Assembly: GCF_003334355.1 (NCBI RefSeq)
Contig: NZ_QOWP01000082.1
Length of the DNA stretch: 1,672 nt
Origin: Escherichia coli
Lineage (GTDB): Bacteria; Pseudomonadota; Gammaproteobacteria; Enterobacterales; Enterobacteriaceae
Reading direction: 5' to 3' (one strand)
Below, piece by piece: positions 1 through 1,672 of this stretch. Both the position numbers and the translations under genes were made by a program. Below the pieces are notes generated by a model, which was not told where the DNA came from, did no database searches, and was given only the letters and a program-made list of their open reading frames with translations. Positions within the stretch are counted from its first letter, which is position 1. Every line of letters begins with the position of its first letter.

Positions 1-54
1 TTGTCTGTAATCGGGGATAATAGAAATATGTTCCATCAATTTTTTAAGTTCCAT
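1..54 (-). CDS. ISAs1-family transposase (H-repeat-associated protein, ORF-H), N-terminal 18 codons only; CDS continues beyond the left edge (5' end in window, 3' partial).
   Basis: Minus strand reads TAAGGAGAACAAA ATG GAA CTT AAA AAA TTG ATG GAA CAT ATT TCT ATT ATC CCC GAT TAC AGA CAA = MELKKLMEHISIIPDYRQ. This matches the N-terminus of E. coli H-repeat / ISAs1-type transposases (YhhI/YdcC/YbfD-like) as I remember them. Consensus SD AAGGAG sits 6 nt upstream. H-repeats are classically found next to Rhs elements. Too short to appear in the ORF track. Confidence 0.65.
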   Translation of the reverse strand, partial: MELKKLMEHISIIPDYRQ

Positions 55-60
55 TTTGTT

Positions 61-66
61 CTCCTT
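61..66 (-). promoter_or_regulatory. Shine-Dalgarno (AAGGAG) of the ISAs1/H-repeat transposase gene
   Basis: Plus-strand CTCCTT at 61..66 is AAGGAG on the minus strand; 6-nt spacer (AACAAA) to the ATG at 54..52. Confidence 0.55.
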
Positions 67-161
67 AATTATGTAAGAAGTATTTGATCATGTATAAGCA
101 ATAAAAAACAGCTTCAGGTAATAAGGAATATCTCAATTTTTAAACATAAAATGCGAATTAT

Positions 162-545
162 TTAGTGCAAAAAGTGAACTTTTGATGATCTTTCCCTGGC
201 CGTTGACTTGATTGCCGTAGCTCGAACGCAAGCACTCTTATCATTCAATGCCATATTGTTCAAAATATTAAAAACATTATCTTCGCATTTTTTGCAAATT
301 TATATTTGCCCGAGTATAAATGCTCCGATATCTCTACGGATATAATTTTTGTCAGTGCAGAATTCAATTGCCAATCTAACAGCGTCTTGCCCCCCTCTTA
401 ACTGTAATACTCTGGCAGATGAAATCCTTTTCAAGGAATTGCGATCATCAAGTAAGCGAAATAATTCATCATCATTTAGTTTCTTACATTTATTATATAA
501 ACCATACTCTTTACTTGCCTTTCTTTTCTGGTATGTATTTGACAT
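162..545 (-). pseudogene. yibA: yibA-like HEAT-repeat protein gene (Rhs-associated, putative orphan immunity gene), disrupted. The intact ORF 545->300 encodes only the N-terminal 81 aa; an in-frame TAA at 302..300 is followed by 45 more in-frame codons to a second stop at 164..162.
   Basis: Translation MSNTYQKRKASKEYGLYNKCKKLNDDELFRLLDDRNSLKRISSARVLQLRGGQDAVRLAIEFCTDKNYIRRDIGAFILGQI* matches the N-terminus of E. coli YibA (about 280 aa, HEAT-repeat protein) as I remember it. After the TAA the same frame reads ICKKCEDNVFNILNNMALNDKSACVRATAI..., which continues the remembered YibA sequence (a Lys codon there in K-12), so the stop looks like a nonsense substitution. Strong SD GGAGG at 558..554, 8 nt upstream of ATG 545..543. 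The track ORF 300..560 starts at an ATG that overlaps the SD and is less likely the true start. Confidence 0.75.
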
Positions 546-553
546 TGCAGGAA

Positions 554-558
554 CCTCC
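554..558 (-). promoter_or_regulatory. Shine-Dalgarno (GGAGG) of the yibA-like ORF
   Basis: Plus-strand CCTCC at 554..558 is GGAGG on the minus strand; 8-nt spacer (TTCCTGCA) to the ATG at 545..543. Confidence 0.6.
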
Positions 559-649
559 ATAAAGGCTATCTTTTTCTATCGTTTGACTGTCTGGAGTCCT
601 CCACCTACTCTGCCATCAGCGCACACGATGTTTGATTATCCTTACATAC

Positions 650-1033
650 TTATTTTCCGTGGCCAAAATTCAGAATTCTCCCATCATTTTTGCCTATTTC
701 TATAATAAAAACCCCACCAGCAATTTGGTCTGAGTGAATGGTACCTTCAACAACCCAACTTGTTGTTAACTCAGTGATTTCGTATGGTTTTTCTTCTTCT
801 GCGGCATCCTGTCCATAACGATTCTTAACATATATCTCAGCTAATTCCAATGCTATAGCTTTATTTTTAACCAAATTTCTAACGGTATATTTACCTTCAC
901 TTTCATACTTGCGCATTATTTTAATATTATTATTACACTGCGCCCATGTGTTGTATGTAAAAACAAACAAAGATACAATGACACAGTTCCTAAACAATAT
1001 TTTTTTACATATTACCATGAACTCTGCAGACAT
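650..1033 (-). CDS. Putative Rhs immunity protein (RhsI-like), 127 aa, with predicted N-terminal Sec signal peptide. Alternative start at ATG 1018..1016.
   Basis: Six-frame ORF immediately downstream of the rhs CT, overlapping its last codons by 29 nt (1005..1033), which is the typical rhs/rhsI arrangement. AAAGGA Shine-Dalgarno at 1046..1041, 7 nt upstream of the ATG. N-terminus [31 protein letters not shown]|QC has a basic n-region, an 11-residue hydrophobic core and a T-W-A cleavage-like site. The mature part contains ...[19 protein letters not shown]...[16 protein letters not shown]..., which resembles small immunity-type proteins but is not assigned to a family. Confidence 0.7.
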
Positions 1034-1672
1034 TAGGTAATCCTTTTCTGTTTGTTATTTCCTTCCCGTGGTTATCTATTGCTTTAAAATTACCACTGGG
1101 CGTACCTAAATAAAATGACTTGATATTGTTATCTTTACTTTTAACTATTTTCTCATCTTTACCTGAAAATATTTCGTCCCAATATTCTCCATGACTATCT
1201 GCACCATGAGTATGATAAGCTGATACTTTCTCAGTACCATTAGGGCAAGGGCTATTGAATGGATATGATCCTTTTCTTTCTCCTCGGTTAGGTGCTGTTG
1301 AGAAATATCTGCCACTATTATCCTTACATATTAAACCAGCGAACTCTTTATCTTCGCAAATAGATTGGCTATTTATTTTATTTAAGGCGTCATATGCGGT
1401 GCTATCTATAGAATCAAATTTATCTGGACCTATCATAGCGGATAGTGTGCCGCAAAGACCATTAGTACATGCCCCCGATTTTGCATCCTCCCACATAGAT
1501 AAACCCAGGGGGTCGATGTCTGATATCGGATTCAATTGATATCCATACAGGTTCCATCCCCCCTTCAGCCCAATCGGATCCTGAGTGATATATCGCCCCT
1601 GCAGCGGGTCATAATAGCGGTGGCGGTTGTAATACAGGCCGGACTCCTCATCATACTGCTGCCCCGGCAGGC
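1005..1672 (-). CDS. Rhs-family polymorphic toxin, C-terminal portion (3' partial; CDS continues beyond the right edge). Conserved core end is followed by a 164-aa variable C-terminal toxin domain of unrecognised family.
   Basis: Minus-strand frame is open from 1670 to the TAA at 1007..1005. It translates to [57 protein letters not shown], then [18 protein letters not shown]...NVCRVHGNM*. The YDPxxGRYxxxDPIGLxGGxNxYxY...PxxxxDPxGL pattern is the Rhs repeat-associated core end that demarcates the variable CT (DPLGL = 1514..1500). The ORF track starts this ORF at 1535 only because it reads a TTG Leu codon as a start; the frame is open upstream. GC is about 59% in 1561..1672 versus about 33% in 1021..1140 (counted by hand). 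Confidence 0.9.
1041..1046 (-). promoter_or_regulatory. Shine-Dalgarno (AAAGGA) for the putative immunity gene, embedded in the 3' end of the rhs coding sequence
   Basis: Plus-strand TCCTTT at 1041..1046 is AAAGGA on the minus strand, 7 nt upstream of the ATG at 1033..1031. Confidence 0.5.

Follow-up and report, generated by a model that had tools for sequence, protein, structure and literature searches.

The locus described here is best set against the RhsA toxin of Escherichia coli and its immunity gene yibA. According to Poole et al. (2011; PMC3150448), who cite Vlazny and Hill (1995), the C-terminal region of RhsA blocks the recovery of cells from stationary phase and yibA neutralizes this effect. 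YibA (K-12 b3594, 280 amino acids) is a HEAT-repeat protein of solved structure (PDB 1OYZ), whose intact form scores 466.5 bits against the NCBIfam equivalog model NF007244 (curated cut-off 275 bits, about 280 amino acids) and whose significant Pfam HEAT_2 matches all lie within residues 139-276. A functional Rhs immunity gene is the ORF immediately downstream of its cognate toxin. In the model of Jackson et al. (2009; PMC2935791), a displaced Rhs toxin end stays behind downstream and decays there. The resulting orphan modules of Rhs and CdiA loci (PMC2935791; PMC3150448) place an older immunity gene downstream of the main, attached pair and in the same orientation, with a fragment of the rhs core and a whole toxin end retained upstream of that gene, and such arrays decay through stop codons and insertion sequences. 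In the MG1655 annotation, a pseudogene termed yrhC (b4552) lies between yhhH and yhhI; our literature search recovered for it a passing mention as a pseudogene only (PMC4738310), with the other matches pertaining to the unrelated yrhC of B. subtilis.

The stretch of E. coli DNA that we analysed (henceforth the window; 1672 bp) matches E. coli chromosomes in the thousands, at an identity of 99.8% or slightly less, and corresponds to MG1655 3622760..3624431, from which it differs by five single bases, one of them within the yibA fragment discussed below. The minus strand carries every gene of the window, viz., the 3' end of rhsB, yhhH, the yibA fragment and the left end of the insertion sequence ISEc1, and the locus as a whole has the order rhsB-yhhH-yibA'-ISEc1-yhhJ, with yhhJ falling outside the window. 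The annotated rhsB 3' end (1005..1672) comprises the end of the core with its DPLGL motif and a DUF4329 toxin domain (Pfam PF14220, E = 1.1e-39), and the annotated yhhH (650..1033) is the presumed cognate immunity gene of this domain. The two genes overlap by 29 nt (1005..1033), such that yhhH starts inside the toxin-coding end in a tight toxin/immunity arrangement. A 52-nt spacer (598..649), running from the yhhH stop to base 597, belongs to the same rhsB-CT/yhhH cassette and is devoid of homology to the K-12 rhsA locus. When compared with every best-matching genome among 5426 complete E. coli genomes, the window has private bases on the plus strand at 78 (A/G), 209 (T/C) and 1569 (C/T), the last being a synonymous difference within rhsB; the source strain thus lies outside this set of genomes. 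We also considered, and rejected, that the window encodes a non-coding RNA or contains a regulatory element: Rfam gave no match at E <= 1, terminator-like sites were absent, and shuffled sequence had more promoter-like sites than the window.

The segment from 545 to 199 on the minus strand corresponds to codons 1-116 of the 280-codon yibA. The initial annotation described a YibA-like ORF of 81 codons ending at TAA 302..300, and both its coordinates and its translation are correct: the frame opens with an ATG at 545..543, preceded by a Shine-Dalgarno GGAGG at 558..554, and the translation of 545..1 reads MSNTYQKRK...AFILGQI (81 amino acids; 303..545), the TAA, and then ICKKCEDNVFNILNNMALNDKSACVRATAIKSTARERSSKVHFLH*, i.e., 45 further codons closed by a stop at 164..162. 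Aligned without gaps to K-12 YibA, the fragment shares 111 of 116 residues (96%), the differences being Q19K, H35R, S64T, K82* and E113K, of which the last stems from the window-private G to A at 209. The post-stop codons 83-116 (199..299) retain 33 of 34 residues identical to YibA. At the DNA level, three intact copies of yibA have CAAATAAAAATTTGC where the window has CAAATATAAATTTGC, so that the nonsense codon at 300..302 stands in place of the AAA of YibA Lys82 and differs from it by one A-to-T change, precisely the single substitution proposed in the initial annotation. In all, nine substitutions separate the fragment from yibA, of which four are amino-acid replacements and one is the nonsense change.

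The 81-codon part is recognized by NF007244 with E = 2.8e-31 and 108.9 bits over profile positions 1-81 of 285, which places it in the YibA family by homology (NF007244/PRK09687), but far below the 275 bits of a full-length match. It also lacks the HEAT-repeat array, since that region is deleted and homology ends at codon 116, leaving the fragment without 59% of the yibA coding sequence. PGAP labels it 'HEAT repeat domain-containing protein' or 'lyase', with the qualifiers 'internal stop; incomplete; missing C-terminus'. In position and sequence it is the MG1655 feature yrhC, at the same locus and with an identical TAA and ISEc1 junction. The differences are that the MG1655 annotation covers only the 81-codon pre-stop part (3623887..3624132), whereas homology runs to codon 116, and that the window has its own change at 209 in the dead frame. 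We hence regard the segment 545..199, with a probability of about 0.9, as a non-functional remnant of the RhsA immunity gene yibA, equivalent to K-12 yrhC and with the history proposed below. The fragment is thus one already catalogued as a pseudogene, and it fits established Rhs biology and ordinary gene decay.

The DNA immediately upstream of the fragment is also of rhsA-yibA type. Homology to the rhsA-yibA region of K-12 and CX04 starts at window position 597, where the part equivalent to 597..566 closes the rhsA CDS with its TAG. The window accordingly retains a 32-nt 3' remnant of an RhsA-type toxin gene (566..597; about 10 codons and the TAG at 568..566), followed by the native 20-nt rhsA-yibA intergenic spacer with its ribosome-binding site (546..565). 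The claim that no toxin remnant precedes the fragment is therefore not entirely accurate. The accompanying view of an orphan, decaying immunity gene of the yibA family left from an earlier arrangement is supported both by the pseudogene annotations (yrhC and PGAP) and by the survey of related strains that the initial annotation had recommended, in which U1 and 405 have an intact yibA in the rhsB locus at the position of the fragment. The fragment has in common with b3594 the ribosome-binding site, the 20-nt spacer and the last 32 nt of rhsA, in addition to the 96% identity over codons 1-116, but differs from it in the stop at codon 82, the loss of codons 117-280 and the absence of a cognate RhsA toxin end at the locus. 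Unlike a functional Rhs immunity gene, its neighbor is the unrelated DUF4329 end of RhsB. Its placement downstream of the main pair and in the same orientation (rhsB-yhhH-yibA', on one strand) is that of a displaced module, but in contrast to the classic orphan modules there is no rhs core piece upstream, and of the toxin gene only the last 32 nt. Given that the toxin end is almost wholly gone, a replacement with a second breakpoint is suggested, rather than a simple circle insertion. The locus conforms to the accepted view of Rhs loci, in which displaced toxin/immunity modules pile up and decay, and what it adds is precision: the breakpoints (the 32-nt remnant and the ISEc1 terminus at codon 116), the frequencies of alleles and junctions, and signs of ongoing ectopic exchange with the yibA of the rhsA locus. 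These details may help reconstruct the movement of Rhs toxin/immunity cassettes between loci.

At the other end, yibA homology ends exactly at 199 and base 198 is the first base of ISEc1 (CAGGG...). The left end of this element (also known as H-rpt) occupies 1..198; its inverted repeat, CAGGGAAAGATCATC..., begins at 198, and yhhI has its start codon at 54. From 198 onwards, the minus strand occurs in multiple copies in E. coli genomes, with matches that set in at the equivalent of 198. Thus, the loss of homology reported at about 210 is to be moved to 199, while the accompanying remark that the tail is not YibA was right: the RERSSKVHFLH* that closes the dead ORF at 164..162 is an out-of-frame tail, i.e., insertion-sequence DNA translated in the frame of yibA. 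Termini in CAGGG are a usual mark of ISAs1-family elements in ISfinder, and ISEc1 has such repeats, a length of about 1.3 kb and one transposase gene. In MG1655 the element spans 1291 bp, from CAGGGAAAGATCATC... to ...GATTACGAAAG/CTTGCCCTG, with yhhI as its sole transposase gene; its terminal inverted repeats are imperfect in K-12. The annotation of the truncating element is that of an ISAs1-like ISEc1 transposase.

A simple insertion of ISEc1 into yibA is ruled out, as the far side of the element adjoins yhhJ-proximal DNA and not the remainder of yibA, and as a search for a target-site duplication at its flanks (left GTCAACGGC, right AATACAGGAC) found no direct repeat common to both. The lack of such a duplication is in keeping with either a deletion or recombination of one insertion-sequence copy with another. 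Three comparison loci, those of U1, 405 and LH85-a, have an internally deleted ISAs1-type element whose right-hand junction with yhhJ is identical to that of the K-12 form. Upstream of it they contain a full-length yibA (split in LH85-a), an rhs orphan fragment, a sel1-repeat gene and an IS630 fragment. Since yibA and the orphan modules are kept there before the same right-hand junction, the K-12 form lacks about 2.2 kb. We infer that yibA was cut by an insertion-sequence-bounded deletion and not by gradual divergence. This furnishes the cause, absent from the initial annotation, for a gene found there to be far shorter than about 280 amino acids: codons 117-280 are deleted at the left end of ISEc1. 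The organization is reminiscent of other insertion-sequence-bounded deletions at ISAs1-family elements, with a terminus that abuts foreign DNA precisely, no target-site duplication and the other end conserved beside yhhJ; where it differs is in the mode, which here could have been either adjacent deletion or insertion of the element into yibA and a later recombination of two of its copies. The direction of the event, as far as these few comparison loci suggest, would be from the longer to the K-12 form.

The insertion sequence of the U1-type loci also differs from that of K-12 near the left end. In U1 (locus L004, 8434-8447 and 8644-8660; also L008 and L009), a solo 14-nt ISEc1 end, AGGGAAAGATCATC, occurs directly after the sel1 gene, and beyond it lie the IS630 fragment and then a second ISAs1-type left end, which diverges from K-12 just inside the repeat. 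This suggests that the insertion-sequence ends of U1-type loci have a history more complex than that of one element.

We propose the following history for the locus. An ancestral rhs locus would have ended in an RhsA-type toxin end followed by yibA. An RhsB-type toxin end together with yhhH would then have replaced the RhsA-type end, leaving in place its last 32 nt, the spacer and yibA, and this replacement would have turned yibA into an immunity-only orphan. Subsequently, an ISEc1-associated deletion of about 2.2 kb would have removed yibA codons 117-280 along with the orphan modules and joined the terminus of the insertion sequence to codon 116. The conversion of Lys82 to TAA would have taken a single A-to-T change.

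The frequencies of the two lesions were determined across the same 5426 complete genomes, using for the stop a 55-mer centered on the variable base, with each 28-base megablast seed word having to include that base. The TAA allele was recovered in 1809 genomes and the AAA allele in 2908, while a 56-mer across the ISEc1 junction was recovered in 1819, nearly the number of the TAA allele. A cluster of yrhC-specific alleles at 363/356/351 is present in 1835 genomes and, among the sampled rows, only in pseudogenes lacking a gene name. The initial annotation had the gene first inactivated by the nonsense codon and then truncated; both lesions are indeed present, but their order does not follow, as six genomes are truncated without the stop. 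These match a synthetic query combining AAA with the ISEc1 junction at 100%, and PGAP marks them 'missing C-terminus' without 'internal stop'. They argue for a variant of the proposed history to which we give close to an even chance, namely that this same pseudogene was first truncated at ISEc1 and acquired its nonsense codon when the fragment was already dead. Consistent with this, three of the six (OSUCMP42NDM, MFDS1016424 and S6aCHROMc) differ from K-12 yrhC within the fragment solely at the codon-82 base, and the haplotypes nest perfectly within one another, in the order 234; +393; +491/442/363/356/351; +302; +209.

The other three point the opposite way. TW10573 and 2015-01-466 (L011 and L015) have yibA-type alleles at all seven of seven sites from 491 to 302, and AS19 (L012) has them at six of the seven, with the yrhC allele at 234 kept in all three. 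In the first two, about 1050 nt upstream are identical to K-12, and AS19 has a single change there; the ISEc1 of TW10573 is identical to that of K-12, whereas that of 2015-01-466 has eight differences and that of AS19 likewise differs. Seven differences packed into 190 nt, beside an upstream flank that is unchanged over a long distance, are what a gene-conversion tract leaves. In these three genomes such a tract, derived from the intact yibA of the rhsA locus, looks to have erased the stop, so that a truncated copy without it can be a secondary state. At least three of the six AAA-truncated genomes thus look like cases of conversion-type repair, and a short conversion patch could account for the three single-site genomes as well. 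Accordingly, the evidence is compatible with either sequence of events, nonsense before truncation or the reverse, and the reading of the fragment as a dead remnant of yibA accommodates both.

The upstream junction offers a further view of exchange between the rhs loci. The junction 598/597 occurs in 2976 genomes and is found in K-12-type loci. From identity bands and sampled rows, we estimate that it is also present in about 400 U1-type loci, whose yhhH is diverged and frameshifted, and that several hundred genomes have it where the cassette precedes an intact yibA at the rhsA locus. One such case is GB089 (L003, 1421-6958), where, at an rhsA locus flanked by yibF and mtlA, an intact yibA is preceded by the RhsB toxin end and yhhH. 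This locus is identical to the window from 1670 to 492 except for the window-private base 1569, and then differs from it at eight sites in 491..209. Such a mosaic indicates that the rhsB-CT/yhhH cassette has been exchanged between the two rhs loci, with a downstream crossover within yibA codons 1-19. On the strength of the GB089 mosaic and the three truncated copies with a yibA-type, stop-removing tract, we tentatively raise a role for yrhC as DNA, though we place it somewhat below an even chance. The 5' segment of yibA and the 32-nt remnant on one side and the rhs core on the other might serve as homology arms, such that a double crossover moves the cassette of RhsB toxin and YhhH from rhsB to rhsA or back; the same homology would allow ectopic gene conversion between yrhC and yibA. 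If this is the case, the pseudogene would shape which toxin each rhs locus carries.

We also considered whether the fragment might still act through a product. It retains an intact start codon and GGAGG, and there is no terminator-like site between it and yhhH, so the sequence could still allow production of the 81-residue peptide. Together with the commonness of the allele, these features might be taken to favor a functional short gene, in which the N-terminal YibA piece or a read-through product is kept as a partial immunity protein or decoy. We hold this to be very improbable. The 33 of 34 residues identical to YibA beyond the stop are what a recent nonsense mutation would leave and not what is expected past a natural gene end, and the match to NF007244 is limited to positions 1-81 of 285 and lies far under the cut-off; a naturally short gene is ruled out by these two observations. 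Moreover, IS1 further disrupts the yrhC fragment in several strains, the spectrum of substitutions, with four replacements and one nonsense change among nine, shows no sign of constraint, and common descent from one haplotype accounts for the high frequency of the allele. As every strongly scoring HEAT repeat is missing, the 81-residue peptide, the maximum product of the fragment, most likely confers no immunity. Nothing points to a function for such a peptide, and the non-functional yibA remnant is our preferred reading. An artifactual stop, or a diverged but intact paralog, has a negligible probability: the exact TAA-centered 55-mer is present in 1809 independently assembled complete genomes (against 2908 for AAA), which marks the stop as a real, widespread allele and answers the concern about an assembly error raised in the initial annotation, and the 164 C-terminal codons are physically absent, with ISEc1 in their place.

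The IS1 insertions within yrhC lie near window position 314, close to the stop, in several strains (e.g., JX21CE35), and in LH85-a (L008, 3435-5613) the yibA of the rhsB locus, full-length there, is split by an IS2, so that one and the same orphan gene has been disrupted independently. Finally, 13 nt that match the terminal repeat of ISEc1, AGGGAAAGATCAT, are located in or next to yibV at the K-12 rhsA locus (L007, 8072-8084; also L003 9350 and L005 9287), and could be either a chance resemblance or the relic of an insertion-sequence end.
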